Positions 1 through 13,894 of a stretch of DNA of 13,894 nt are shown here, one piece after another. The stretch is from a virus. Taxonomy: Duplodnaviria > Heunggongvirae > Uroviricota > Caudoviricetes. The notes beneath the pieces were generated by a model, which was not told the origin of the DNA, made no database searches, and worked only from the letters and a program-made list of their open reading frames with translations. The translations under genes and the position numbers were made by a program. The stretch lies in the IMG/VR virus record IMGVR_UViG_2645728091_000007, positions 1-13,894 of that record; one strand, written 5' to 3'. Each line of letters starts with the position of its first letter. Position 1 is the stretch's first letter.

Positions 1-1
1 C

Positions 2-1063
2 GGGGAGGAAGGAAACTACCGGATGGAAAGAGTCCCCCTAAAGCAGACTGACAGACATCACAAATCCCCGGGTGGGGATTTGTGTATAAGAGACAGACCA
101 GTAGCAGGGGAAAACATCCGCGATAATGCGCCAAATTTCCATAAATGGCTTGAACATGCTGCAAGAAAAGACCCGCGTAAGATGATGCGTATATGTGCCG
201 CGTTATACATGATTATGGCGAACCGCTACGACTGGCAGATGTTCATTGAGGCCACCGGAGACGGGGGAAGCGGTAAGAGTACATTTACCCATATTGCCAC
301 CCTGCTTGCTGGCAAACAGAACACCGTAAGCGCGGAGATGACATCACTCGATGATGCAGGAGGGCGCGCGCAGGTTGTCGGGAGTCGTCTTATCGTCCTT
401 GCCGATCAGCCGAAATATACGGGGGAAGGCACGGGCATCAAGAAAATCACGGGAGGCGATCCCGTTGAAATTAACCCGAAATATGAGAAGCGATTCACGA
501 CGATAATAAGGGCGGTGGTACTGGCAACCAATAACGACCCGATGATCTTTACCGAACGGGCCGGAGGTGTGTCACGCCGTCGGGTGATTTTCCGGTTCGA
601 CAACATTGTAAGGGAGGACGAAAAAGACAAGGAATTACCGGAAAAGATAGCGGCAGAAATCCCCGTAATTATCCGCCGCTTGCTGGCTAATTTTGCTGAC
701 CCTGAAAAGGCACGGGCTTTATTACTGGAACAGCGTGACGGTGATGAAGCTCTGGCAATAAAGCAGCAAACGGATCCGGTTGTTGAGCTTTGCGCGGCGC
801 TGGAGTTTCTGGAGGAAGCTCGTGGGCTAATGATGGGCGGTGGTGGTGACACCGTGAAGTACACGACCAGAAACAGCCTTTACCGTGTCTATATGGCCTT
901 CATGGCATACACAGGAAAGGGGAAATGTTTGAGCGTGAATGAGTTCGGAAAGGCTATGAGGTCAGCGGCGAAAGTTTACGGATATGAATATATTACGCGA
1001 AAAGTTAAGGGAGTCACGCAGACCAACGCAACGACTACTGATGATTGCGATGCGTTTTTATAA
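2..1063 (+). CDS. Primase-helicase, P4 alpha/D5 family, C-terminal portion (5'-partial; frame is open from the window edge)
   Basis: Walker A motif GDGGSGKST about 80 codons into the ORF, preceded by a D5_N-like segment (NFHKWLEHAARKDPRKMMRICAALYMI) and followed by a C-terminal region typical of P4-family primases. First in-frame ATG is at 23, but the frame is open from position 2. N-terminal primase domain is absent from the window. Confidence 0.7.
   Translation, partial: GEEGNYRMERVPLKQTDRHHKSPGGDLCIRDRPVAGENIRDNAPNFHKWLEHAARKDPRKMMRICAALYMIMANRYDWQMFIEATGDGGSGKSTFTHIATLLAGKQNTVSAEMTSLDDAGGRAQVVGSRLIVLADQPKYTGEGTGIKKITGGDPVEINPKYEKRFTTIIRAVVLATNNDPMIFTERAGGVSRRRVIFRFDNIVREDEKDKELPEKIAAEIPVIIRRLLANFADPEKARALLLEQRDGDEALAIKQQTDPVVELCAALEFLEEARGLMMGGGGDTVKYTTRNSLYRVYMAFMAYTGKGKCLSVNEFGKAMRSAAKVYGYEYITRKVKGVTQTNATTTDDCDAFL
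78..96 (-). mobile_element. Tn5/IS50-like 19-bp end sequence (element body would lie to the left)
   Basis: Reverse complement of 78-96 is CTGTCTCTTATACACAAAT. The first 16 nt equal the Tn5 mosaic end exactly; 17/19 match both the outside end (CTGACTCTTATACACAAGT) and the mosaic end. A 9-bp-stem palindrome CAAATCCCC-gggt-GGGGATTTG containing a SmaI site lies at 61-82. Confidence 0.3.
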
Positions 1064-1077
1064 AAAATGGCAATGGT

Positions 1078-1305
1078 TATCTACCTTGTCTACCTGACTG
1101 AAAGAAAATACTTTTATTTCAATGTATTAATGCAGGTAGATAACTATTTTTCACTGTCTACCTGTTATCTACCTTATCTACCCATTTTTGTAGACAGGTA
1201 AGGAGACGGGTAGAGATGAGGTAGACAGCTATTTGGGGCTGTCTACCTCCCTGAAACCCGCGCCATTACTGGCCTGATAACTAATCAGGTAGACAAGGTA
1301 GACAA
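1078..1305. repeat. Iteron cluster, about 11 copies of GGTAGACA / TGTCTACC in both orientations (putative ori or crr)
   Basis: Copies at about 1078, 1087, 1135, 1155, 1167, 1175, 1190, 1209, 1220, 1240, 1288 and 1297, including a direct tandem GGTAGACAAGGTAGACAAGG at 1288-1307. AT-rich context immediately downstream of the primase gene. Confidence 0.6.
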
Positions 1306-1352
1306 GGTGGTGGTGCACAAAAAACTTTTTAAACGAGGGGGTAAAAATAAAA

Positions 1353-1610
1353 ATGCACACATCAGGAAAACTGAACAAACATATAAAGCCACATTACCGC
1401 GCCCTTGATATGGCTGAACACTGGCTAAGGGTGGCGATTAAGGCAATAGACCGCAACGCCGGGGAAGGATACGCGAAAGCACATCCCGAACTGATAAGCG
1501 CATTCATGACAACGGCGGCTGCAAACTTTGCCACGCTGACCGAACGGGAGATTGCTGAAGCGGAGGAAGTGACAACAATCAATATTAAGTCCGGAGAGCT
1601 GGCAGCATGA
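1353..1610 (+). CDS. Hypothetical small protein (85 aa)
   Basis: ORF with a GAGGGGG Shine-Dalgarno about 12 nt upstream; its stop overlaps the SSB start (ATGA at 1607-1610), suggesting translational coupling. No family recognised. Confidence 0.5.
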   Translation: MHTSGKLNKHIKPHYRALDMAEHWLRVAIKAIDRNAGEGYAKAHPELISAFMTTAAANFATLTEREIAEAEEVTTINIKSGELAA

Positions 1611-2056
1611 CGGCGCAAATATCAGTTTACGGGCGGTTGGTGGACGACCCGCAGACAAAACAGACCAGCAAGGGCACCCCCATGACGCTGGCGCGTATGG
1701 CGGTATCACTGCCCTGCAGTCAGTCGGATGACGGTCTGGCGACGTTGTGGTTATCTGTCCTGGCGTTTGGCAGACAAGCCGACGCGCTGGCAAAGCATCA
1801 CAAAGGCGAACTCCTGAGCGTGGCGGGTAACATGCAGATGAGCCAGTGGACTGGACAGAACGGCGAAACGCGGCAGGGCTGGCAGGTTATCGCAGACAGC
1901 GTAATCAGTGCGCGATCGGTGCGACCGGGCGGCAAAAAAGGCCAACAGGGGCAGGCTACTGACGCACTGAACAGAGCAAAACAACAGGCAGATCAGCAAG
2001 GAAGCCAGCCACCAGAGGGAGATAATGAGCAATGGGGAGATGATATCCCGTTTTAA
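1607..2056 (+). CDS. ssb: Single-stranded DNA-binding protein
   Basis: N-terminal OB-fold-like region (ISVYGRLVDDPQ...), Q/G-rich linker, and C-terminal WGDDIPF matching the acidic tail of E. coli SSB (DFDDDIPF). Confidence 0.8.
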   Translation: MTAQISVYGRLVDDPQTKQTSKGTPMTLARMAVSLPCSQSDDGLATLWLSVLAFGRQADALAKHHKGELLSVAGNMQMSQWTGQNGETRQGWQVIADSVISARSVRPGGKKGQQGQATDALNRAKQQADQQGSQPPEGDNEQWGDDIPF

Positions 2057-2074
2057 ATATTGCCAATAAAAAAA

Positions 2075-2098
2075 GCCGGAAAAAATAAATTTTCCGGC
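2075..2098 (-). terminator. Stem-loop with a 9-bp perfect stem (GCCGGAAAA / TTTTCCGGC); looks like an intrinsic terminator on the minus strand
   Basis: On the minus strand the hairpin is followed by a run of 7 T (complement of the A-run at 2068-2074). On the plus strand no U-run follows. Sits in the SSB-capsid intergenic region. Confidence 0.3.
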
Positions 2099-2272
2099 AT
2101 GCTACATAAATCCCGACCAAAGGGAGTGAAGATATTAACACTAATTGTCCGCACTGAAGTTGTCACCCCAAAACTTTATACAACATTGCACTCGGTTGCA
2201 TGTGTTCGCATGACAAATATCGGTGATAGCATATATCCACAATTATTTTTAATGAATGCAAAGAGGATGCGT

Positions 2273-3313
2273 ATGGTTGATTTATATTCGCCTACTCAGC
2301 TTGTACAGGTAGTTAATGCTGTAGATGTACAAAAACAACTAAATGCGTTGTTTACCAGTTTGTTTTTTACTCGCTCGGTAATGTTTGAATCGCGCGATAT
2401 TATTCTTGATACAATCGACGATCCAAATATCCCAATTGCAGCGTTTTGTTCTCCTATGGTGGGTAGTAAAGTTTCACGTGACGAAGGGTACGAATCAAAA
2501 ACAATTCGTCCAGGCTATATGAAGCCGAAAAGCAGCATTGATCCAAATAAGTTAGCTGTGCGCCCTGCTGGTGTATCACCTGAGCAATACAATTCTTTTG
2601 GGGCGCGTAATATTAAAGTTAAACAGGCGATTGTAAATCAGGCTAAAGCTATTCGTGCACGTATTGAATGGCTTGCCGTTCAGGCAATCACAACGGGGAA
2701 AAATATCATTGAGGGCGATGGTATTGAACGTTATGAGCTGGACTGGAATATTAAACCACAAAATATCATCACTCAGTCTGGCGGTGCTGAGTGGTCAGGT
2801 AAGGATAAAGAAACTTTTGATCCAAATGATGATATTGATAGCTACGCAGAATTTAGTGAGGGCGTCACTAATATCATCATTATGGGCGGTAATGTATGGA
2901 AGAAATACCGTTCATTCAGAGCGATAAAAGAGGCTCTGGATACCCGTCGTGGTTCTAATTCCGAACTGGAAACGGCCCTTAAAGACCTTGGTGATTCGGT
3001 GAGTTTTAAAGGGTATATGGGCGATGTTGCGATTGTTGTATATAGCGGGCGTTATACCGACGAGGACGGAACTGAAAAACATTTCCTTGATCCTGATTTG
3101 ATGGTGCTTGGCAATACGGCTCTTCAGGGGATTGTCGCCTATGGAGGTATTCAGGATCCGGAGCTAATCCGAATGGGGCTGACTAAAGCCGAACTTGCAC
3201 CGAAAAACTATATTGTGCCTGGTGATCCGGCTATTGAATATGTGCAGACACATTCAGCACCACAGCCAATACCGGCCCGCATCAATCGTTTTGTTACCGT
3301 TCGCATTGGCTAA
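2273..3313 (+). CDS. Major capsid protein, lambda gpE family (divergent homolog, 346 aa)
   Basis: Similarity to lambda gpE along the full length (LFF near the N-terminus; QSGG.EWS..DK.T.DP.DDI; LDTRRGSNSELETA; GDVAIVVYSG). Start at 2273 chosen from the AAGAGG Shine-Dalgarno at 2261-2266 and alignment to gpE MSMY; the ORF track's upstream extension to 2060 has no homology. Confidence 0.8.
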   Translation: MVDLYSPTQLVQVVNAVDVQKQLNALFTSLFFTRSVMFESRDIILDTIDDPNIPIAAFCSPMVGSKVSRDEGYESKTIRPGYMKPKSSIDPNKLAVRPAGVSPEQYNSFGARNIKVKQAIVNQAKAIRARIEWLAVQAITTGKNIIEGDGIERYELDWNIKPQNIITQSGGAEWSGKDKETFDPNDDIDSYAEFSEGVTNIIIMGGNVWKKYRSFRAIKEALDTRRGSNSELETALKDLGDSVSFKGYMGDVAIVVYSGRYTDEDGTEKHFLDPDLMVLGNTALQGIVAYGGIQDPELIRMGLTKAELAPKNYIVPGDPAIEYVQTHSAPQPIPARINRFVTVRIG

Positions 3314-3322
3314 GGGGGAGCA

Positions 3323-3664
3323 ATGGCTACTCATTACACTGAACTCATGGCTGGCACTGAAGCACTGGTGACTACGCTGGGGATATTTTCAGCTAATAAA
3401 GGGGTAATTCCTGCATTTACGCCACTGATGCAGGAAGATGCAACAGGTGCACTGGTGGTATGGGATGGTTCGAGCGTAGGTAAAGCGGTTTATGTTTCCG
3501 CTGTACAAATCGACACCGCGAAAAAAACACAGGCTCAGGTCTATAAGACAGGTGTCTTAAATGTTGATGCTCTGAACTGGCCTGAGTCTGTTAAAGAACT
3601 GTCAGTAAAGGTTGCAGCGTTTGTTGGCTCAGGTATTTCTGTTCAGCCGCTGGCTCGTGTGTAA
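3323..3664 (+). CDS. Head decoration protein, lambda gpD family (113 aa)
   Basis: Alignable to lambda gpD (THY; TPLM; VVWDGS vs VAWDGT; YKTG vs YKSG; WPE; AF.G..IS). AAGGGGGAG Shine-Dalgarno directly after the capsid gene stop. Confidence 0.75.
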   Translation: MATHYTELMAGTEALVTTLGIFSANKGVIPAFTPLMQEDATGALVVWDGSSVGKAVYVSAVQIDTAKKTQAQVYKTGVLNVDALNWPESVKELSVKVAAFVGSGISVQPLARV

Positions 3665-3675
3665 AGGGGGATACA

Positions 3676-4059
3676 ATGCAGAATGATTACAATGACCTTA
3701 AGCCAATTGCCGAAATGATGTACCCGAATCCAGCTGTAGAGGAATTAAAAGCTATCGCTGACAAAATGTGTTTAAGCGAGCGCCTTGTTGATATGAATCA
3801 GGTGATGGAAATTACAACCCTGAGTCGTCGTACACTGCTAAACCTTGAGGCTAGTGGAGAGTTCCCGGAGCGTGTGCAGGTTACGGAAGGGCGTAAGGCC
3901 TGGTATTTAAGTGAAGTGATCGACTGGATAAATAATATTCCTCGCGCTTCTGAATATTGCCGCGTACCTGTCCCAAAAAAGCCAGATGCGGCGCTATGCC
4001 TCAAGATTGAGCGTGTACGCCGCAATGCACGGGATGGTCGCTATAAGCTGATTGGTTGA
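3676..4059 (+). CDS. AlpA-family (phage transcriptional regulator / excisionase-like) HTH protein with a ~40-aa N-terminal extension
   Basis: Segment MEITTLSRRTLLNLEASGEFPERVQVTEGRKAWYLSEVIDWINN resembles the AlpA/MerR-like HTH domain. Strong Shine-Dalgarno AAGGGGGAT before the ATG at 3676. Confidence 0.6.
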   Translation: MQNDYNDLKPIAEMMYPNPAVEELKAIADKMCLSERLVDMNQVMEITTLSRRTLLNLEASGEFPERVQVTEGRKAWYLSEVIDWINNIPRASEYCRVPVPKKPDAALCLKIERVRRNARDGRYKLIG

Positions 4060-4079
4060 TGAAATTAGGGCCCGCTCTG

Positions 4080-4149
4080 GCTGGCGGGTCCTTTCCGGTG
4101 ATCCAGAACGTTACGGGGCGGAAGGCGCGCGGGTTTTCGCTATTTATGA
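4080..4149 (+). other. Lambda-type cos site (cosQ/cosN-like) with a variant cohesive-end sequence
   Basis: GGCGGGTCCTTTCCGGTGATCC...GTTACG, then a 12-mer GGGCGGAAGGCG at 4116-4127 (lambda cosN is GGGCGGCGACCT), then CGCGGGTTTTCGCTATTTATGA matching the lambda left end as I recall it. Lies directly upstream of the Nu1-like gene. Confidence 0.6.
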
Positions 4150-4260
4150 GCATTTTAAGGGGACTGGTGGTGGTTTTGTTGTTCGCTGTATCTGTATGAA
4201 TAATAAGAGAAAAATACAATCAATACACCAACCTGAAACAGTAATTAAGTTGTGGTATCA

Positions 4261-4803
4261 ATGAAATTACACCTGATGAACAAAAAAAACATGGCAAAAA
4301 GTTGCCGTGTAAGCGCCACTGCGTTCGATAAGTGGGGAGTGATTCCCGTCGAGCGTAAGGGCCGTGAGGCGTTCTATGATGTTGCCAGTGTAATAGATAA
4401 TCGGGTTAACAATGCAATCAGCCAGATTACAAACGAAACGGGCGATATTGATGACGATGAACTTTTACGCGTCAGGATCAGATTACTGACAGCACAGGCA
4501 GAGGCGCAGGAGCTTAAAAACGAGCGCGAACGCGGCGACGTTATTGATACAGAGTTTTGTATGTATGTTCTTTCCAAACTGGCGAGTCAGATTTCATCTA
4601 TCATGGACAGCCTGCCGCTTACCATGCAAAGGCGCTTCCCACAGATGACTCCGGCTATGCTGGATGGACTTAAAAAGGAAGTGGCTAAAGCCTGTAATGC
4701 CAGTGCCGGCGTTGCTGACAACCTCCCACAGATACTGGCTGATTATCTGATGGAAAGTACAGGAAACGTACCGGATAAGTTGCAGCTGAATAAGGATAAG
4801 TAA
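4261..4803 (+). CDS. Terminase small subunit, lambda Nu1-like
   Basis: Similarity to lambda Nu1 in the middle and C-terminal parts (LTAQAEAQELKNERERGDVIDTEFCMYVLSKLASQISSIMDSLPLTMQRRFPQ vs lambda LTRAQADAQELKNARDSAEVVETAFCTFVLSRIAGEIASILDGLPLSVQRRFPE). N-terminal HTH region is divergent. Start is ambiguous: ATG at 4261, 4276 (best alignment to Nu1 MEVNKK) or GTG at 4252. Confidence 0.8.
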   Translation: MKLHLMNKKNMAKSCRVSATAFDKWGVIPVERKGREAFYDVASVIDNRVNNAISQITNETGDIDDDELLRVRIRLLTAQAEAQELKNERERGDVIDTEFCMYVLSKLASQISSIMDSLPLTMQRRFPQMTPAMLDGLKKEVAKACNASAGVADNLPQILADYLMESTGNVPDKLQLNKDK

Positions 4804-4814
4804 CGTAGTACGCT

Positions 4815-5090
4815 ATGACTGAATCCGAACTACTGAAAGTAATCTGCCATGCTGGTGGAGTCAGCCACCAGCATGACGAACAGACCACGCAGCCGGGCAG
4901 TGTCACCGCTGAAAATTACGCTCGTGTGGTTGCTGAGGTTATGTGGCGTGACGGTATAGAACTGAACGGACAGGATTGCTTAGTCATCCGCACCAAAGTG
5001 CTGGCTATACTGGCAGCTAGGCGGAGGCAGGGACAACGCCAGAACGTTGCATCGTACCAGTGGAAGAAGCCTGACAGACTGCGGCGATAA
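4815..5090 (+). CDS. Hypothetical protein (91 aa) in the position where a large terminase gene would be expected
   Basis: ORF only; no similarity to the lambda gpA N-terminus; weak RBS. Confidence 0.35.
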   Translation: MTESELLKVICHAGGVSHQHDEQTTQPGSVTAENYARVVAEVMWRDGIELNGQDCLVIRTKVLAILAARRRQGQRQNVASYQWKKPDRLRR

Positions 5091-5492
5091 CTCTTTGATT
5101 TTCTCGACGGCCCCAAAATGGGCCTTACCATAGCCAGCTAATAAATGAGCAAGCCTCAAAAGTGAGGTTTGTGGCCGTTTGGCCTATTCATATGCTAACT
5201 CGTTGATATTCCTGACGACGCAAATTTACGCCTTGTGGCTGGTAGTCGAATTGCAAATTTGCAACTCAACTATGAAACTACAGGTAGTTTGGGTAGTAAA
5301 AGCAACACACTGATTTTGGGGCTTCTTCGCGATACCTAATATTATGGTATCGGTGGAAGAGATATCGTTTCTCATAGGTTAGCACCGAGGGCGGAGTTCC
5401 GCCCTCATCGAAAAATTGCTTACGAGTCGTCAAAATAAATTAATCGACTGAGTATAATGATTAACTAATTGCTCGTGTTACTTCATTATACG

Positions 5493-6254
5493 TTATTTCC
5501 CATCTTTAAGGTTTAACCAAGTGTTAATTAAAAAAAGAGCCATTGAACCTGATAAATTTACTGCAAGTTCGGCATGCCTTGGGGATGGCTTAATTGATGA
5601 GCTGTTCGTTCCATGTGCATCACCGAGTTTATTACGAAGAGTACCTAACCCATTTACAACTGCAGAACAACCGCCGAGAATTTGTTTGAAGATATTTTCA
5701 GTATGTTGGTCGGCAGATAGGTTAAGTTCTTTTGAAAGAGTTTTATAAAGCTCTGACATTTCAATATTTTTATTATTATACTGAATGCCCATATCATCAA
5801 GAATGTGTTTGCAAACTGTTTCAAGAAGTGTTCTTGCGGAGGTTATCGCACCATCCGGATCTGTATGGCGCCGTTCAAGTGCTTTTATCCAAACGGCGTG
5901 GACTCCATCCTCGTTAAACTTTCTTAATACATCAGATATGTCTTCATCCGCTGGAGCTTTATTTTTCCCTTCTAGATAGTCCAGCATCGGCTGAAATGCC
6001 TTATAAATCAAATCTCTCCGGGGGGCATACTTTTCAGTCTTTTTTATAAATCCCCAAAATTCTTTTAGTGAGCGATTAGTTCTCACAAACTCTGGTAATA
6101 GCTGATGTAAAGGAGGATTTTGTAAGAAATATGTTCTTAGAAGCAAATAATCATTATTAGCTTCATCCTGGGCTCCTGTAGCTCTTGCAATTAGTATGTT
6201 TTGAAGCGCTACTGCGCGCTCTAGGTCATTTTGAAGGGTATCTATAATATTCAT
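5493..6254 (-). CDS. Abortive-infection-like protein with a C-terminal HEPN-type Rx6H motif (Abi_C-like)
   Basis: 253-aa ORF on the minus strand. C-terminal GTLRNKLGDAHG fits the HEPN Rx4-6H motif and my recollection of Abi_C-family proteins. AT-rich gene flanked by noncoding DNA, consistent with acquired cargo. Confidence 0.5.
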   Translation of the reverse strand: MNIIDTLQNDLERAVALQNILIARATGAQDEANNDYLLLRTYFLQNPPLHQLLPEFVRTNRSLKEFWGFIKKTEKYAPRRDLIYKAFQPMLDYLEGKNKAPADEDISDVLRKFNEDGVHAVWIKALERRHTDPDGAITSARTLLETVCKHILDDMGIQYNNKNIEMSELYKTLSKELNLSADQHTENIFKQILGGCSAVVNGLGTLRNKLGDAHGTNSSSIKPSPRHAELAVNLSGSMALFLINTWLNLKDGK

Positions 6255-6314
6255 AACAAATCTTTATTCACTTCATTTGTGGGTTGATAATTGAATGGTT
6301 TGTACATTGATTTC

Positions 6315-6337
6315 TGTGTATTGCAGTGTGTATTGCA
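6315..6337. repeat. Tandem direct repeat TGTGTATTGCA(G) x2 in the putative promoter region of the Abi-like gene
   Basis: TGTGTATTGCAG followed by TGTGTATTGCAA at 6315-6337, upstream of the minus-strand start at 6254. Confidence 0.3.
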
Positions 6338-6427
6338 ACATAGCCATTCAGGTAGAGATTATGCTCTATTTTTCCTCTTATATCATTCACATACTTACAC
6401 CATTGACTCATGTAACCCAAGCATGAG

Positions 6428-7204
6428 GTGAATCCGCAGATGACCCTGCGTCGCCTGCCGGATGAAGATCCGCAGAATCTGGCGGACCCGGCTTACCGCC
6501 GCCGTCGCATCATCCTGCAGAACATGCGTGACGAGGAGCTGGCCATTGCCCAGGTCGAAGAGATGCAGGCCGTTTCTGCCGTGCTTAAGGGCAAATACAC
6601 CATGACCGGTGAAGCCTTCGATCCGGTTGAGGTGGATATGGGCCGCAGTGCGGCGAATAACATCACGCAGTCCGGCGGCACGGAGTGGAGTAAGCGTGAT
6701 AAGTCCACGTATGACCCGACCGACGATATCGAAGCCTACGCGCTGAACGCCAGCGGTGTGGTGAATATCATCGTGTTTGATCCGAAAGGCTGGGCGCTGT
6801 TCCGTTCCTTCAAAGCCGTCAGGGAGAAGCTGGATACCCGTCGCGGCTCTCATTCCGAACTGGAGACAGCGGTAAAAGACCTGGGCAAAGCGGTGTCTTA
6901 TAAGGGAATGTATGGCGATGTGGCCATCGTCGTGTATTCCGGACAGTACGTGGAAAATGGTGTCAAAAAGAACTTCCTGCCGGACAACACGATGGTGCTG
7001 GGCAACACTCAGGCACGCGGTCTGCGCACCTATGGCTGCATTCAGGATGCGGACGCACAGCGCGAAGGCATTAACGCCTCTGCCCGTTACCCGAAAAACT
7101 GGGTGACCACCGGCGATCCGGCGCGTGAGTTCACCATGATTCAGTCAGCACCGCTGATGCTGCTGGCTGACCCTGATGCGTTCGTGTCCGTACAACTGGC
7201 GTAA
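6428..7204 (+). pseudogene. E: Major capsid protein gpE, 5'-truncated (C-terminal ~260 codons, lambda-like)
   Basis: Translation matches lambda gpE from about residue 82 (NPQMTLRRLPDEDPQNLADPAYRRRRI...) to the C-terminus (...FVSVQLA). In-frame upstream codons KHE are preserved but a TAA occurs at 6413-6415 and homology ends near 6410. The N-terminal ~80 codons are missing. Confidence 0.8.
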
Positions 7205-7206
7205 TC

Positions 7207-7224
7207 ATGGCCCTTCGGGGCCAT
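7207..7224 (+). other. Stem-loop ATGGCCC-TTCG-GGGCCAT after the E stop, followed by a T-rich tract
   Basis: Perfect 7-bp stem with a TTCG tetraloop; matches the E-FI intergenic hairpin of lambda as I recall it. Confidence 0.5.
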
Positions 7225-7245
7225 TTTCTCTCTGTGGAGGAGTCC

Positions 7246-7641
7246 ATGACGAAAGATGAACTGATTGCCCGTCTTCAGGTGCTGGGTGAGCAACTGAACC
7301 GTGATGTCAGCCTGACGGGGACGAAAGAAGAACTGGCGCTCCGTGTGGCAGAGCTGGAAGAGGAGCTTGATGACACGGATGACGCTGCCGGTCAGGACAC
7401 GTCTGTCAGCCCGGAAAATGCGCTGACCGGGCATGAAAATGAGGTGGTGTCAGCGCAGCCGGGTACCGTGACTGATACGGCTGATCTGGTCACGGTTGTG
7501 GCACTGGTGACGCTGCATACTGATGCACTTCACGCCACGCGGGATGAGGCTGTGGCATTTGTGCTGCCGGGAACGGCGTTCCGTGTTTCTGCCAGTGTGG
7601 CAGCCGAAATGACAGAACATGGCCTGGCCAGAATGCAATAA
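7246..7641 (+). CDS. FI: DNA packaging / head assembly protein FI
   Basis: MTKDELIARLQ...GLARMQ matches lambda gpFI. GGAGGA Shine-Dalgarno at 7236-7241. The ORF-track start at 7207 is an upstream in-frame extension. Confidence 0.85.
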   Translation: MTKDELIARLQVLGEQLNRDVSLTGTKEELALRVAELEEELDDTDDAAGQDTSVSPENALTGHENEVVSAQPGTVTDTADLVTVVALVTLHTDALHATRDEAVAFVLPGTAFRVSASVAAEMTEHGLARMQ

Positions 7642-7652
7642 CGGGAGGCGCT

Positions 7653-8006
7653 GTGGCTGATTTCGATAACCTGTTCGATGCTGCCATTGCCCGCGCCGAT
7701 GAAACGATACGCGGGTACATGGGAACGTCAGCCACCATGACATCCGGTGAGCAGTCCGGCGCAGTAATACGTGGTGTTTTTGATGACCCTGAAAATATCA
7801 GCTATGCCGGACAGGGCGTGCGTGTTGAAGGCTCCAGCCCGTCCCTGTTTGTCCGGACTGATGATGTGCGGCAGCTGCGGCGCGGCGACACGCTGACCAT
7901 CGGTGAGGAAAACTTCTGGATAGACCGGATTTCACCGGATGATGGCGGAAGCTGTCATCTCTGGCTTGGGCGTGGCGTACCGCCTGCCGTTAACCGTCGC
8001 CGCTGA
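7653..8006 (+). CDS. FII: Head-tail joining protein FII
   Basis: GTG start with GGGAGG Shine-Dalgarno; MADFDNLFDAAIARADETIRGYMG... matches lambda gpFII (117 aa). Confidence 0.9.
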   Translation: MADFDNLFDAAIARADETIRGYMGTSATMTSGEQSGAVIRGVFDDPENISYAGQGVRVEGSSPSLFVRTDDVRQLRRGDTLTIGEENFWIDRISPDDGGSCHLWLGRGVPPAVNRRR

Positions 8007-8017
8007 AAGGGGGATGT

Positions 8018-8596
8018 ATGGCCATAAAAGGTCTTGAGCAGGCCGTTGAAAACCTCAGCCGTATCAGCAAAACGGCAGTGCCCGGTGCCGCCGCAATGGC
8101 CATTAACCGCGTGGCCACAACCGCAATAAAGCAGTCGGCGTCACAGGTTGCCCGTGAGACAAAGGTACGCCGGAAACTGGTAAAGGAAAGGGCCAGGCTG
8201 AAAAGGGCCACGGTCAAAAATCCGCAGGCCAGAATCAAGGTTAACCGGGGGGATTTGCCCGTAATCAAGCTGGGGAATGCGCGGGTTGTCCTGTCCCGCC
8301 GCAGGCGTCGTAAAAAGGGGCAGCGTTCATCCCTGAAAGGTGGCGGCAGCGTGCTTGTGGTGGGAAACCGTCGTATTCCCGGCGCGTTTATTCAGCAACT
8401 GAAAAATGGCCGGTGGCATGTCATGCAGCGTGTGGCCGGGAAAAACCGTTACCCCATTGATGTGGTGAAAATCCCGATGGCGGTGCCGCTGACCACGGCG
8501 TTTAAACAGAATATTGAACAGATACGGCGTGAACGTTTGCCGAAAGAACTGGAATACGCCCTGAAACAACAACTGAGGATTGCGATAAAGCGATGA
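8018..8596 (+). CDS. Z: Tail completion protein Z
   Basis: 192 aa, MAIKGLEQAVENLSRISKTAVPGAAAMAINRVA... matches lambda gpZ. AAGGGGGAT Shine-Dalgarno. Confidence 0.9.
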   Translation: MAIKGLEQAVENLSRISKTAVPGAAAMAINRVATTAIKQSASQVARETKVRRKLVKERARLKRATVKNPQARIKVNRGDLPVIKLGNARVVLSRRRRRKKGQRSSLKGGGSVLVVGNRRIPGAFIQQLKNGRWHVMQRVAGKNRYPIDVVKIPMAVPLTTAFKQNIEQIRRERLPKELEYALKQQLRIAIKR

Positions 8597-8988
8597 AACA
8601 TACTGAACTCCGTGCAGCCGTACTGGATGCACTGGAGAAGCATGACACCGGGGCGACGCTTTTTGATGGTCGCCCCGCTGTTTTTGATGAGGCGGATTTT
8701 CCGGCAGTTGCCGTTTATCTCACCGGCGCTGAATACACGGGCGAAGAGCTGGACAGCGATACCTGGCAGGCGGAGCTGCATATCGAAGTTTTCCTGCCTG
8801 CTCAGGTGCCGGATTCAGAGCTGGATTCGTGGATGGAGTCCCGGATTTATCCGGTGATGAGCGATATCCCGGCACTGTCAGATTTGATCACCAGTATGGT
8901 GGCCAGCGGCTATGACTACCGGCGCGACGATGATGCGGGCCTGTGGAGTTCAGCCGATCTGACTTATGTCATTACCTATGAAATGTGA
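8593..8988 (+). CDS. U: Tail terminator protein U
   Basis: 131 aa, [22 protein letters not shown]... matches lambda gpU. ATGA overlap with the Z stop. Confidence 0.9.
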
Positions 8989-8995
8989 GGACGCT

Positions 8996-9736
8996 ATGCC
9001 TGTACCAAATCCTGTAATGCCGGTGAAAGGTGCCGGGACCACCCTGTGGGTTTATAAGGGGAGCGGTGACCCTTATGCGAACCCGCTTTCAGACGTTGAC
9101 TGGTCGCGTCTGGCAAAAGTTAAAGACCTGACGCCCGGCGAACTGACCGCTGAGTCCTATGACGACAGCTATCTCGATGATAAAGATGCAGACTGGACTG
9201 CGACCGGGCAGGGGCAGAAATCTGCCGGAGATACCAGCTTCACGCTGGCGTGGATGCCCGGAGAGCAGGGGCAGCAGGCGCTGCTGGCGTGGTTTAATGA
9301 AGGTGATACCCGTGCCTATAAAATCCGCTTCCCGAACGGCACGGTCGATGTGTTCCGTGGCTGGGTCAGCAGTATCGGTAAGGCGGTGACGGCGAAGGAA
9401 GTGATCACCCGCACGGTGAAAGTCACCAATGTGGGACGTCCGTCGATGGCAGAAGATCGCAGCACGGTAACAGCGGCCACCGGCATGACGGTAACGCCAG
9501 CCAGTGCTTCCGTAGTGAAAGGGCAGAGCACTACGCTGACCGTGGCATTCCAGCCGGAGGGCGTAACCGACAAGAGCTTTCGTGCGGTGTCTGCGGATAA
9601 AACAAAAGCCACCGTGTCGGTCAGTGGTATGACCATCACCGTGAACGGCGTTGCTGCAGGCAAGGTCAACATTCCGGTTGTATCCGGTAATGGTGAGTTT
9701 GCTGCGGTTGCAGAAATTACCGTCACCGCCAGTTAA
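8996..9736 (+). CDS. V: Major tail protein V
   Basis: [36 protein letters not shown]... matches lambda gpV (246 aa), including the C-terminal Ig-like region. GAGGA Shine-Dalgarno; the ORF-track start at 8966 is an upstream extension overlapping U. Confidence 0.9.
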
Positions 9737-9751
9737 TCCGGAGAGTCAGCG

Positions 9752-10174
9752 ATGTTCCTGAAAACCGAATCATTTGAACATAACGGTGTGACCGTCACGC
9801 TTTCTGAACTGTCAGCCCTGCAGCGTATTGAGCATCTTGCCTGGTTGAAAGAGCAGGAAAAAAAGGCTGAATCCAGTGGCAACCTGCAGGTGTCTGTAGA
9901 GGATCTTATCAGAGGCGGGGCGTTTCTGGTGGCGATGTCTCTGTGGCATAACCATCCGCAGAAGACAAAGCTGCCGTCCATGAATGAAGCCATTACGCAG
10001 ATTGAGCAGGAAGTGCTTACCACCTGGCCCACGGAGGCAATTGCTCAGGCTGAAAACGTGGTGTTACGTCTGTCCGGAATGTCTGAGTTTGTGGTGAATA
10101 ATGCCCCTGAACAGGCAGAGGACGCCGGGCCTGCAGAGCCTGTTTCTGCGGGAAAGTGTTCGACGGTGAGCTGA
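9752..10174 (+). CDS. G: Tail assembly chaperone G
   Basis: 140 aa, MFLKTESFEHNGVTVTLSELSALQRIEHLA... ending ...PVSAGKCSTVS as in lambda gpG. Middle region differs from lambda at several residues. Confidence 0.9.
   Translation: MFLKTESFEHNGVTVTLSELSALQRIEHLAWLKEQEKKAESSGNLQVSVEDLIRGGAFLVAMSLWHNHPQKTKLPSMNEAITQIEQEVLTTWPTEAIAQAENVVLRLSGMSEFVVNNAPEQAEDAGPAEPVSAGKCSTVS
10150..10156 (+). promoter_or_regulatory. Programmed -1 ribosomal frameshift slippery heptamer G GGA AAG (G into T frame)
   Basis: Heptamer GGGAAAG lies in the G zero frame as G-GGA-AAG near the 3' end of G. The T frame (10156-10590) is -1 relative to G and has no start codon of its own with an RBS. Confidence 0.85.
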
Positions 10175-10590
10175 GTTTTGCCCTGAAACTGGCGCGCGAG
10201 ATGGGGCGACCCGACTGGCGCGCCATGCTTGCCGGGATGTCATCCACGGAGTATGCCGACTGGCACCGCTTTTACAGTACCCATTATTTTCATGATGTTC
10301 TGCTGGATATGCACTTTTCCGGGCTGACGTACACCGTGCTCAGCCTGTTTTTCAGCGATCCGGATATGCATCCGCTGGATTTCAGTCTGCTGAACCGGCG
10401 TGAGGCTGACGAAGAGCCTGAAGATGATGTGCTGATGCAGAAAGCGGCAGGGCTTGCCGGAGGTGTCCGCTTTGGCCCGGACGGGAATGAAGTTATCCCC
10501 GCTTCCCCGGATGTGGCGGACATGACGGAGGATGACGTAATGCTGATGACAGTATCAGAAGGGATCGCAGGAGGAGTCCGGTATGGCTGA
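10156..10590 (+). CDS. T: Tail assembly protein T segment, expressed as a G-T fusion by -1 frameshifting (fusion would span 9752-10590)
   Basis: Translation FDGELSFALKLAREMGRPDWRAMLAGMSSTEYADWHRFYSTHYFHD... matches lambda gpT; frame is -1 relative to G. Confidence 0.85.
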   Translation: MFDGELSFALKLAREMGRPDWRAMLAGMSSTEYADWHRFYSTHYFHDVLLDMHFSGLTYTVLSLFFSDPDMHPLDFSLLNRREADEEPEDDVLMQKAAGLAGGVRFGPDGNEVIPASPDVADMTEDDVMLMTVSEGIAGGVRYG

Positions 10591-13144
10591 ACCGGTAGGC
10601 GATCTGGTCGTTGATTTGAGTCTGGATGCGGCCAGATTTGACGAGCAGATGGCCAGAGTCAGGCGTCATTTTTCCGGTACGGAAAGTGATGCGAAAAAAA
10701 CAGCGGCAGTCGTTGAACAGTCAATGAACCGGCAGGCGCTGGCTGCACAGAAAGCGGGGATTTCCGTCGGGCAGTATAAAGCCGCCATGCGTATGCTGCC
10801 TGCACAGTTCACCGACGTGGCCACGCAGCTTGCAGGCGGGCAAAGTCCGTGGCTGATCCTGCTGCAACAGGGGGGTCAGGTTAAGGACTCCTTCGGCGGG
10901 ATGATCCCCATGTTCAGGGGGCTTGCCGGTGCGATCACCCTGCCGATGGTGGGGGCCACCTCGCTGGCGGTGGCGACCGGTGCGCTGGCGTATGCCTGGT
11001 ATCAGGGCAACTCAACCCTGTCCGATTTCAACAAAACGCTGGTCCTTTCCGGCAATCAGGCGGGACTGACGGCAGATCGTATGCTGGTCCTGTCCAGAGC
11101 CGGGCAGGCGGCAGGGCTGACGTTTAACCAGACCAGCGAGTCACTCAGCGCACTGGTTAAGGCGGGGGTAAGCGGTGAGGCTCAGATTGCGTCCATCAGC
11201 CAGAGTGTGGCGCGTTTCTCCTCTGCATCCGGCGTGGAGGTGGACAAGGTCGCTGAAGCCTTCGGGAAGCTGACCACAGACCCGACGTCGGGGCTGACGG
11301 CGATGGCACGCCAGTTCCATAACGTGACGGCGGAGCAGATTGCGTATGTTGCTCAGTTGCAGCGTTCCGGCGATGAAGCCGGGGCATTGCAGGCGGCGAA
11401 CGAGGCCGCAACGAAAGGGTTTGATGACCAGACCCGCCGCCTGAAAGAGAACATGGGCACGCTGGAGACCTGGGCAGACAGGACTGCGCGGGCATTCAAA
11501 TCCATGTGGGATGCGGTGCTGGATATTGGTCGTCCTGATACCGCGCAGGAGATGCTGATTAAGGCAGAGGCTGCGTTTAAGAAAGCAGACGACATCTGGA
11601 ATCTGCGCAAGGATGATTATTTTGTTAACGATGAAGCGCGGGCGCGTTACTGGGATGATCGTGAAAAGGCCCGTCTTGCGCTTGAAGCCGCCCGAAAGAA
11701 GGCTGAGCAGCAGACTCAACAGGACAAAAATGCGCAGCAGCAGAGCGATACCGAAGCGTCACGGCTGAAATATACCGAAGAGGCGCAGAAGGCTTACGAA
11801 CGGCTGCAGACGCCGCTGGAGAAATATACCGCCCGTCAGGAAGAACTGAACAAGGCACTGAAAGACGGGAAAATCCTGCAGGCGGATTACAACACGCTGA
11901 TGGCGGCGGCGAAAAAGGATTATGAAGCGACGCTGAAAAAGCCGAAACAGTCCGGCGTGAAGGTGTCTGCGGGCGATCGTCAGGAAGACAGTGCTCATGC
12001 TGCCCTGCTGACGCTTCAGGCAGAACTCCGGACGCTGGAGAAGCATGCCGGAGCAAATGAGAAAATCAGCCAGCAGCGCCGGGATTTGTGGAAGGCGGAG
12101 AGTCAGTTCGCGGTACTGGAGGAGGCGGCGCAACGTCGCCAGCTGTCTGCACAGGAGAAATCCCTGCTGGCGCATAAAGATGAGACGCTGGAGTACAAAC
12201 GCCAGCTGGCTGCACTTGGCGACAAGGTTACGTATCAGGAGCGCCTGAACGCGCTGGCGCAGCAGGCGGATAAATTCGCACAGCAGCAACGGGCAAAACG
12301 GGCCGCCATTGATGCGAAAAGCCGGGGGCTGACTGACCGGCAGGCAGAACGGGAAGCCACGGAACAGCGCCTGAAGGAACAGTATGGCGATAATCCGCTG
12401 GCGCTGAATAACGTCATGTCAGAGCAGAAAAAGACCTGGGCGGCTGAAGACCAGCTTCGCGGGAACTGGATGGCAGGCCTGAAGTCCGGCTGGAGTGAGT
12501 GGGAAGAGAGCGCCACGGACAGTATGTCGCAGGTAAAAAGTGCTGCCACGCAGACCTTTGATGGTATTGCACAGAATATGGCGGCGATGCTGACCGGCAG
12601 TGAGCAGAACTGGCGCAGCTTCACCCGTTCCGTGCTGTCCATGATGACAGAAATTCTGCTTAAGCAGGCAATGGTGGGGATTGTCGGGAGTATCGGCAGC
12701 GCCATTGGCGGGGCTGTTGGTGGCGGCGCATCCGCGTCAGGCGGTACAGCCATTCAGGCCGCTGCGGCGAAATTCCATTTTGCAACCGGAGGATTTACGG
12801 GAACCGGCGGCAAATATGAGCCAGCGGGGATTGTTCACCGTGGTGAGTTTGTCTTCACGAAGGAGGCAACCAGCCGGATTGGCGTGGGGAATCTTTACCG
12901 GCTGATGCGCGGCTATGCCACCGGCGGTTATGTCGGTACACCGGGCAGCATGGCAGACAGCCGGTCGCAGGCGTCCGGGACGTTTGAGCAGAATAACCAT
13001 GTGGTGATTAACAACGACGGCACGAACGGGCAGATAGGTCCGGCTGCTCTGAAGGCGGTGTATGACATGGCCCGCAAGGGTGCCCGTGATGAAATTCAGA
13101 CACAGATGCGTGATGGTGGCCTGTTCTCCGGAGGTGGACGATGA
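10583..13144 (+). CDS. H: Tail tape measure protein H
   Basis: 853 aa, MAEPVGDLVVDLSLDAARFDEQMARVRRHF... matches lambda gpH in length and sequence. AGGAGGA Shine-Dalgarno. Confidence 0.95.
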   Translation: MAEPVGDLVVDLSLDAARFDEQMARVRRHFSGTESDAKKTAAVVEQSMNRQALAAQKAGISVGQYKAAMRMLPAQFTDVATQLAGGQSPWLILLQQGGQVKDSFGGMIPMFRGLAGAITLPMVGATSLAVATGALAYAWYQGNSTLSDFNKTLVLSGNQAGLTADRMLVLSRAGQAAGLTFNQTSESLSALVKAGVSGEAQIASISQSVARFSSASGVEVDKVAEAFGKLTTDPTSGLTAMARQFHNVTAEQIAYVAQLQRSGDEAGALQAANEAATKGFDDQTRRLKENMGTLETWADRTARAFKSMWDAVLDIGRPDTAQEMLIKAEAAFKKADDIWNLRKDDYFVNDEARARYWDDREKARLALEAARKKAEQQTQQDKNAQQQSDTEASRLKYTEEAQKAYERLQTPLEKYTARQEELNKALKDGKILQADYNTLMAAAKKDYEATLKKPKQSGVKVSAGDRQEDSAHAALLTLQAELRTLEKHAGANEKISQQRRDLWKAESQFAVLEEAAQRRQLSAQEKSLLAHKDETLEYKRQLAALGDKVTYQERLNALAQQADKFAQQQRAKRAAIDAKSRGLTDRQAEREATEQRLKEQYGDNPLALNNVMSEQKKTWAAEDQLRGNWMAGLKSGWSEWEESATDSMSQVKSAATQTFDGIAQNMAAMLTGSEQNWRSFTRSVLSMMTEILLKQAMVGIVGSIGSAIGGAVGGGASASGGTAIQAAAAKFHFATGGFTGTGGKYEPAGIVHRGEFVFTKEATSRIGVGNLYRLMRGYATGGYVGTPGSMADSRSQASGTFEQNNHVVINNDGTNGQIGPAALKAVYDMARKGARDEIQTQMRDGGLFSGGGR

Positions 13145-13470
13145 AGACCTTCCGCTGGAAAGTGAAACCCGGTATGGATGTGGCTTCGGTCCCTTCTGTA
13201 AGAAAGGTGCGCTTTGGTGATGGCTATTCTCAGCGAGCGCCTGCCGGGCTGAATGCCAACCTGAAAACGTACAGCGTGACGCTTTCTGTCCCCCGTGAGG
13301 AGGCCACGGTACTGGAGTCGTTTCTGGAAGAGCACGGGGGCTGGAAAGCCTTTCTGTGGACGCCGCCTTATGAGTGGCGGCAGATAAAGGTGACCTGCGC
13401 AAAATGGTCGTCGCGGGTCAGTATGTTGCGTGTTGAGTTCAGCGCAGAGTTTGAACAGGTGGTGAACTGA
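13141..13470 (+). CDS. M: Tail tip assembly protein M
   Basis: 109 aa, MKTFRWKVKPGMDVASVPSVRKVRFGDGYSQRAPAGLNANLK... matches lambda gpM. ATGA overlap with the H stop. Confidence 0.9.
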   Translation: MKTFRWKVKPGMDVASVPSVRKVRFGDGYSQRAPAGLNANLKTYSVTLSVPREEATVLESFLEEHGGWKAFLWTPPYEWRQIKVTCAKWSSRVSMLRVEFSAEFEQVVN

Positions 13471-13894
13471 TGCAGGATATCCGGCAGGAAACACTGAATG
13501 AATGCACCCGTGCGGAGCAGTCTGCCAGCGTGGTGCTCTGGGAAATCGACCTGACAGAGGTCGGTGGAGAACGTTATTTTTTCTGTAATGAGCAGAACGA
13601 AAAAGGTGAGCCGGTCACCTGGCAGGGGCGACAGTATCAGCCGTATCCCATTCAGGGGAGCGGTTTTGAACTGAATGGCAAAGGCACCAGTACGCGCCCC
13701 ACGCTGACGGTTTCTAACCTGTACGGTATGGTCACCGGGATGGCGGAAGATCTGCAGAGTCTGGTCGGCGGAACGGTGGTCCGGCGTAAGGTTTACGCCC
13801 GTTTTCTGGATGCGGTGAACTTCGTCAACGGAAACAGTTACGCCGATCCGGAGCAGGAGGTGATCAGCCGCTGGCGCATTGAGCAGTGCAGCGA
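13470..13894 (+). CDS. L: Tail tip protein L (3'-partial; runs off the window end)
   Basis: ATG at 13470 overlaps the M stop by 1 nt. Translation MQDIRQETLNECTRAEQSASVVLWEIDLTEVGGERYFFCNEQNEKGEP... matches the lambda gpL N-terminus. Not in the ORF track because no stop is reached. Confidence 0.9.
   Translation, partial: MQDIRQETLNECTRAEQSASVVLWEIDLTEVGGERYFFCNEQNEKGEPVTWQGRQYQPYPIQGSGFELNGKGTSTRPTLTVSNLYGMVTGMAEDLQSLVGGTVVRRKVYARFLDAVNFVNGNSYADPEQEVISRWRIEQCS

Follow-up and report, generated by a model that had tools for sequence, protein, structure and literature searches.

The window, a stretch of 13,894 nt (positions 1–13,894 of the IMG/VR virus record IMGVR_UViG_2645728091_000007), displays a cluster of short repeats in the intergenic region that follows the 3′ part of a primase-helicase gene (pri-rep). 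The upstream open reading frame has the Pfam domains DUF5906 and Pox_D5. The intergenic region is 289 bp in length, between the primase stop codon (positions 1061–1063) and the start of the next open reading frame (position 1353), and the first repeat begins at position 1078, 15 bp past the stop codon. Genes for a hypothetical protein and an SSB follow, and further downstream are genes for a lambda E-type capsid protein, a lambda D-type decoration protein, an AlpA-like HTH protein and a Nu1-like TerS (positions 4252–4803). The features of the region are listed in Table 1.

Table 1. Features in and around the repeat array of the window
Feature	Positions	Strand	Remarks
Terminal 96 bp of ISEc13 (IS4-family)	1–96	.	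ends with ...TGTGTATAAGAGACAG; interrupts the primase gene
pri-rep, 3′ part (primase-helicase)	97–1063	+	approx. aa 262–583 of the intact 583-aa protein; Walker-A helicase core and C-terminal DNA-binding domain
C-terminal winged-helix domain, putative iteron reader	770–1045	+	aa 487–578 of the intact protein
Left outer tandem iteron pair	1078–1094	-	GGTAGATA and GGTAGACA on the minus strand, 9-bp register; hexamers invariant in 8/8 aligned elements; mirrors 1288–1304
AT-rich spacer, putative DNA-unwinding element	1095–1134	.	28% GC
Central-left iterons	1135–1182	.	1135–1142 (+), 1155–1162 (-), 1166–1173 (-), 1175–1182 (-)
Central-right iterons	1189–1247	.	degenerate 1189–1196 (+, TGTAGACA), 1209–1216 (+, GGTAGAGA), 1220–1227 (+), 1240–1247 (-)
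GC-rich box CTGAAACCCGCGCCATTACTGG in the right spacer	1251–1272	.	near-invariant across 8 elements
Right outer tandem iteron pair	1288–1304	+	GGTAGACA twice, 9-bp register; invariant hexamers
Block AAAACTTTTTAAACGAGGGGGTAAAAATAAA with the RBS of the next gene	1321–1352	+	invariant in the alignment; right edge of the replication module
85-aa hypothetical protein	1353–1610	+	next gene after the array
SSB	1607–2056	+	Pfam SSB, E = 2e-15

The octamer GGTAGACA is found six times in the window as exact copies, all of them within positions 1087–1304 (expected number 0.28; none of 200 shuffles reached six). The degenerate form GGTAGAYA is present in ten exact copies, all within positions 1078–1304 (expected 0.41; shuffle maximum 3). 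Two additional copies with one mismatch lie inside the array, at positions 1189 and 1209, and the eight other one-mismatch matches are isolated singles across the remaining 13.6 kb. The array has 12 octamer-like sites in all, and 11 of the 12 carry the hexamer core GGTAGA, with six core sites on the minus strand (1078, 1087, 1155, 1166, 1175 and 1240) and five on the plus strand (1135, 1209, 1220, 1288 and 1297). The twelfth octamer, on the plus strand at position 1189, is without the core. The order and orientation of the iterons across the array is - - [AT-rich] + - - - + + - + +. A preliminary description of the window, made from the sequence alone, had reported a dense octamer array in both orientations, and this is confirmed by the counts. 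It had also reported one tandem pair; there are instead three pairs at 9 bp (1078/1087, 1166/1175 and 1288/1297) and two at 11 bp. The AT-richness ascribed to the entire ~230 bp holds for the left part, where the GC content is 28–29% over positions 1051–1200, but not for the right part, with 51% over positions 1201–1300. A 30-mer within the left spacer (positions 1100–1129) is among the 0.13% least stable of the window.

The array is organised as a dyad. Five inverted pairs (1080/1297, 1089/1288, 1135/1242, 1157/1220 and 1168/1209) share one exact common centre at position 1191, and an exact common centre did not occur in 20,000 random placements. The region of the right outer pair forms a 21-nt inverted repeat with positions 1077–1097 (95% complementary), and perfect 12-nt inverted arms are present at positions 1218–1229 and 1238–1249. 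Each half of the array resembles a P4 ori unit, i.e. facing iterons, a spacer of ~41–46 bp and then a tandem pair.

Origins of the iteron-plasmid type (RepA/Pi/TrfA) display direct repeats of 17–22 bp, DnaA boxes and often Dam GATC sites. The window array is not of this type: its repeats are 8 bp and mostly inverted, and a scan of the array region found no GATC and no DnaA box within one mismatch of TTATCCACA. A search for host-factor sites (GATC, DnaA, IHF and Fis-like) yielded only TTATCTACC, which is the iteron itself with two mismatches, and a weak IHF-like site at position 1117. A scan of positions 1–6500 matched no Rfam family, thus a known structured RNA is unlikely.

The sequence at positions 900–1700 of the window has matches in 864 of 5,426 complete E. 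coli genomes, some with 99.9% identity (megablast), and relatives that cover at least 80% of the primase-ori-SSB segment are present in 561 of the 5,426. One relative, in strain EC4 (L001), is 99.9% identical over positions 900–1700 and will be used to show the complete element. It is ~11.3 kb in length, with the gene order int, HTH, Icd-like, DUF4222, primase (583 aa), intergenic region, hypothetical protein, SSB, capsid, decoration and HTH, and it sits between the two halves of the major capsid gene of a lambdoid prophage (positions 9745–9990 and 21316–22104). The window itself covers the island only from mid-primase rightwards, and it is via L001 that the hallmarks of a phage-inducible chromosomal island (PICI) are seen (int, an alpA-type regulator, pri-rep, unidirectional genes and a size of ~10–20 kb).

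The window island is likewise inside a major capsid gene (a lambda E homologue, ~6420–7204) and is co-oriented with it. At the right junction, Pfam Phage_cap_E positions 94–328 resume at nt positions 6428–7204, and FI and tail genes follow. The same right junction with the same cargo is present in 41 complete genomes. A helper-embedded PICI, 11capE, has been described as an insertion in capsid gene E, and such embedded islands carry their own primase and origin (NAR Genom Bioinform 2023, PMC10111431). By its sequence, the window element is of this known helper-embedded configuration. The window copy differs from 11capE in its AbiJ-like and terS cargo and in the disruption of its primase gene by an IS, and the 11capE study concerns the integration configuration, without a dissection of the ori (PMC10111431).

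The primase sequence in the window is 100% identical to the L001 primase over 321 aa. Positions 219–441 of the intact protein match 7OLA (E = 4.9e-15), which has been identified as the SaPI5 PriRep (PMC9371898). Positions 487–578 match 1KA8, the origin-binding domain of P4 alpha (phmmer, E = 2.2e-7). The P4-alpha-like C-terminal domain predicted in the preliminary description is thus present, and by analogy with P4 alpha it may bind the iterons.

In SaPIs, the Rep proteins bind iterons via a C-terminal winged helix, and the ori consists of 6–12 short iterons directly after rep; these point in opposite directions and flank an AT-rich region, two or more per side (PMC9371898). The window region resembles the SaPI ori in the location of the array directly after the initiator gene, in iterons opposed around an AT-rich region and in a homologous helicase core (7OLA). 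It differs in that SaPIs belong to Gram-positive bacteria, their penta- or hexanucleotide iterons are unrelated in sequence and their regulatory architecture is different, and there is no DNA homology.

EcCICFT073 (L009) provides a homologous origin that has been tested. Origins of E. coli PICIs are found immediately 3′ of pri-rep, with two iteron sets that flank an AT-rich region, and plasmids with the pri-ori segment of EcCICFT073 replicate, but those with a deletion of ori or of pri do not (PMC6092414). The array region of the window aligns with EcCICFT073 positions 11997–12284 with ~79% DNA identity. The GGTAGA core, the 11-site layout and the exact dyad are the same; the spacers differ. 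The gene order is also that of the window, with the origin between pri-rep and the hypothetical protein-SSB genes in an intergenic region of 288 bp, and the primases are ~80% identical. The published primer for deletion of pri in EcCICFT073 includes CAGGTAGACAGGGTAGACAG, which is the first iteron pair. Downstream, EcCICFT073 encodes capsid (c1499) and decoration (c1500) homologues (PMC6092414), as does the window island. The two islands differ in location, i.e. EcCICFT073 lies upstream of phoQ, whereas the window island lies within a prophage capsid gene and its primase gene is cut by ISEc13. The suggestion that the array is a PICI-style origin next to rep is thus supported by homology to a tested ori.

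The window and EcCICFT073 were aligned with six other elements (alignment A1; eight elements in all, 73%–82% identity). TCTACC or GGTAGA is invariant at nine positions, in the same place and the same orientation, and the spacers drift. Within positions 1064–1310, 56 of 66 core-hexamer columns are invariant across the eight elements vs. 53 of 181 columns elsewhere (Fisher p = 3e-15). The hexamers at 1168–1173 and 1177–1182 are invariant in all eight, and those in the octamers 1135–1142 and 1155–1162 are variable in the group L005–L007. The number of GGTAGA cores per relative is 10–11, and the synteny of primase, intergenic region, hypothetical gene and SSB is kept in all relatives. Conservation of the repeats in related elements, on which the preliminary description had staked its proposal, is therefore found, with the hexamers kept in place across eight elements.

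In L005–L007 (intergenic regions at ~1965–2315), iteron positions 7–8 are GG (GGTAGAGG) and not YA. The primase C-terminal domain of this subgroup displays three clustered substitutions, from LNVNDFGK to LNVAEFSK or LNVADFSK. The cluster is a possible candidate for a determinant of fine specificity, but the link with the iterons is weak, since L006 has the same protein as the subgroup and yet is heterogeneous at iteron positions 7–8.

In some E. coli islands, which carry other primase alleles, the match to the window begins at about positions 1366–1400 and extends only rightwards. L010 is one example. Its hypothetical protein and SSB are 95% identical to those of the window, and its HTH regulator (WP_001178671.1) and decoration protein have the same accessions as in L001. 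Its primase allele is different and its iterons are wholly different: GGTAGA is absent, and GGTGAA occurs at 11 sites with the layout preserved. The GGTGAA offsets in L010 are -17, -27, +68, -91, -110, +142, +152, +163, -186, +228 and +236, and the GGTAGA offsets in the window are -17, -26, +72, -94, -105, -114, +146, +157, -179, +225 and +234 (signs denote strand). The exact dyad is present in the window and EcCICFT073; in other iteron alleles the symmetry is approximate only. L011 (hypothetical protein and SSB 87% identical) has a primase allele like that of L010 and the same GGTGAA iterons. L012 (~84% identical) has a RepA-helicase allele and AAGTGAG repeats. Two other islands share only gene order with the window: L013 (primase, intergenic region, hypothetical protein and SSB) has a P4-family primase and the repeat GTAGGGATA, and L014 (DUF4222, primase and intergenic region) has another primase allele and GGTATACA. 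The C-terminal 100 aa of the primases show 81%–83% identity within the GGTAGA group and 33% vs. the L010 group. Thus the iterons change with the primase allele and travel with the primase, not with the neighbouring regulators, DUF4222 or terS.

These comparisons bear on a different interpretation, in which the repeats are operator/promoter sites through which a transcription factor (AlpA-like HTH, PerC or DUF4222) controls the hypothetical protein-SSB-capsid genes, with no origin present. It is an intergenic inverted-repeat array directly upstream of a gene block, and the island encodes several small DNA-binding proteins. However, the iterons do not follow the downstream genes: the identical downstream HTH protein accompanies different iterons in L010 and L001. 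DUF4222 also fails as the iteron reader, as the L012 protein (AAGTGAG) is 93% identical to that of EcCICFT073 (GGTAGA), and the L010 and L011 proteins are only 31% identical despite their common iterons. In addition, no sigma-70-like promoter or intrinsic terminator was found in positions 900–1500, and 11 sites over 230 bp around an AT-rich core are origin-like. An operator function in place of an origin is thus very unlikely.

A Nu1-like TerS is among the island proteins, and since proteins of this type bind repeated sites, the iterons might be cosB or pac-like sites for recognition by the terminase small subunit in packaging. A lambda-like cos is however found elsewhere (positions 4084–4156). 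TerS is also rejected as the iteron reader because L001 has identical iterons with no annotated terS in the island, and EcCICFT073, with the same iterons, lacks terS and its cos sites have been mapped (PMC6092414). The likelihood of a packaging role is negligible.

The iteron of L010 and L011 (positions 2679–2965 in each) is identical to the annotated P4 type 1 repeat, TGTTCACC (P4 repeats were taken from record X51522). The C-terminal domain of their primases matches 1KA8 with an E-value of 2e-24 and shows 47%–48% identity to that of P4 alpha; the domain of the window-type primase is only ~30% identical to it. The L010 region matches the P4 ori by BLAST, in the half that corresponds to the right half of the window array. 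Judging from these identities, cross-talk between P4 and PICIs of the L010/L011 type at origin recognition is a possibility. A literature search with the iteron TGTTCACC gave only unrelated primer matches.

The window array itself shares several properties with P4: a primase-helicase initiator with a homologous C-terminal origin-binding domain (structure 1KA8), 8-bp iterons in both orientations, and, in its right half, a layout like that of the P4 ori (plus sites, one minus site, a spacer of ~41–46 bp and a plus tandem pair). The iteron differs, GGTAGAYA (TRTCTACC) in the window vs. TGTTCACC in P4, and the window 9-mer GGTAGACAG differs from the P4 sequence GGTGAACAG at two positions. The motif comparison with P4 that had been proposed gives agreement in the layout of the right half and disagreement in iteron sequence.

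P4 has an ori and a crr that are 4.5 kb apart, and the preliminary description had left the choice between a putative ori and a putative crr. The window array holds the position of the P4 crr, directly 3′ of the primase gene, and the primase has a P4-alpha-like origin-binding domain. The array might thus be a crr-like enhancer, an auxiliary site required in cis that works only together with a true origin located apart from it in the island. The P4 crr, however, consists of two 120-bp direct repeats, and long direct repeats of this kind were not found in the window array, where the layout is a dyad. It is the P4 ori that the right half of the array resembles, and that the matching half of L010 matches by BLAST. 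No second GGTAGAYA cluster, exact or with one mismatch, is present in the complete element (L001, positions 10153–21316). With only one cluster per element, a single origin of the SaPI/PICI type is indicated and not an ori plus crr of the P4 type. The EcCICFT073 pri-ori segment alone drives plasmid replication (PMC6092414), thus no second cis site is needed. On the basis of the single cluster and of this sufficiency the crr-only interpretation is rejected as highly improbable. The ori alternative of the preliminary description stands, through homology to EcCICFT073 and the co-variation of iterons with primase alleles.

Bases 1078–1304 therefore appear, with a probability of about 0.9, to be the replication origin of a Gram-negative PICI of the EcCICFT073/11capE type that is read by Pri-Rep. 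In the proposed process, induction of the island would lead to synthesis of Pri-Rep, a fused primase and self-loading hexameric helicase, and its C-terminal winged helix would read the GGTAGAYA iterons. The dyad around position 1191, with five inverted pairs and outer tandem pairs that face inwards, may position helicase assemblies on both sides. The AT-rich spacer at 1095–1134 would then be opened, the primase domain would prime, and a host polymerase would copy the excised circle. Pri-Rep binding, the site of melting and the loading of a double hexamer are proposed by analogy to P4 alpha and SaPI Rep. Because the breakpoints of the module swaps lie to the right of the array, it is conceivable that the iterons have an additional primase-linked function, e.g. 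autoregulation or copy control.

The conserved GC-rich box in the right spacer is a point against the origin model, which does not explain it. A similar box, CTGAAAGCCTTGCCATTCGTGG, is present in L013, whose iterons are unrelated, and the box is absent from the P4-iteron allele L010. It could be a candidate priming site or host-factor site.

The window origin belongs to a kind that is already described and tested in EcCICFT073; the finding is correct and ordinary. Its main value is a correct annotation, as the cis-acting origin for a family of phage satellites that is widespread in E. coli. Three properties may be useful to work on PICI replication: the iteron layout is an exact dyad; a change of primase C-terminal domain is accompanied by a clean switch of iteron sequence within a constant layout, with one allele being the P4 iteron; and the origin contains a conserved GC-rich box. 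These results leave the present view of the working of PICI origins unchanged.

The preliminary description placed a primase gene upstream of the array. This gene is indeed found there, but it is not intact. Bases 1–96 are 100% identical to part of a multicopy element, present at 29 places in E2348/69, and the match adjoins an annotated ISEc13 transposase. The alignment with the intact element breaks at base 96/97, and primase homology begins at exactly base 97. The sequence at 82–97 (TGTGTATAAGAGACAG) was considered as a Nextera or Tn5 mosaic-end adapter artefact; this was rejected, the sequence being the natural ISEc13 terminus. The ISEc13/primase junction was not found in any complete E. 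coli genome of the collection. The primase gene of this island copy thus appears, from sequence, to be interrupted at about codon 262 and insertionally inactivated. With its cognate primase gene broken in the window, the origin is of doubtful function in this genome, and it is probably orphaned or inactive unless a Pri-Rep of the same specificity comes in trans. A more speculative and rather unlikely scenario is that the intact origin fires on Pri-Rep supplied in trans by a co-resident PICI of the GGTAGA type; full-length relatives of the primase-ori-SSB segment are found in about one of ten complete E. coli genomes. In this case the defective island would parasitise another satellite. In a broader version of this idea, the iteron alleles could represent replication-specificity groups among E. 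coli PICIs; within one fixed dyad layout, GGTAGACAG and the P4 sequence GGTGAACAG differ at two bases only.

A megablast search of positions 1–6000 against deposited phages gave a single 73-bp cos-like match, with 90% identity to two Escherichia prophage records, thus the element is not a deposited phage. The lambda-like cos of the window (ACGGGGCGGAAGGCGCGCGGGTTTTCGCTATTTATGA) at positions 4084–4156 is located just upstream of the Nu1-like terS. At the right end of the island, a cargo gene on the minus strand (positions 5493–6254) encodes an Abi_C/AbiJ-like abortive-infection protein (Pfam E = 1e-23; PADLOC AbiJ E = 2e-21). In L001 this position is occupied by another hypothetical gene, thus this is a variable defence slot.
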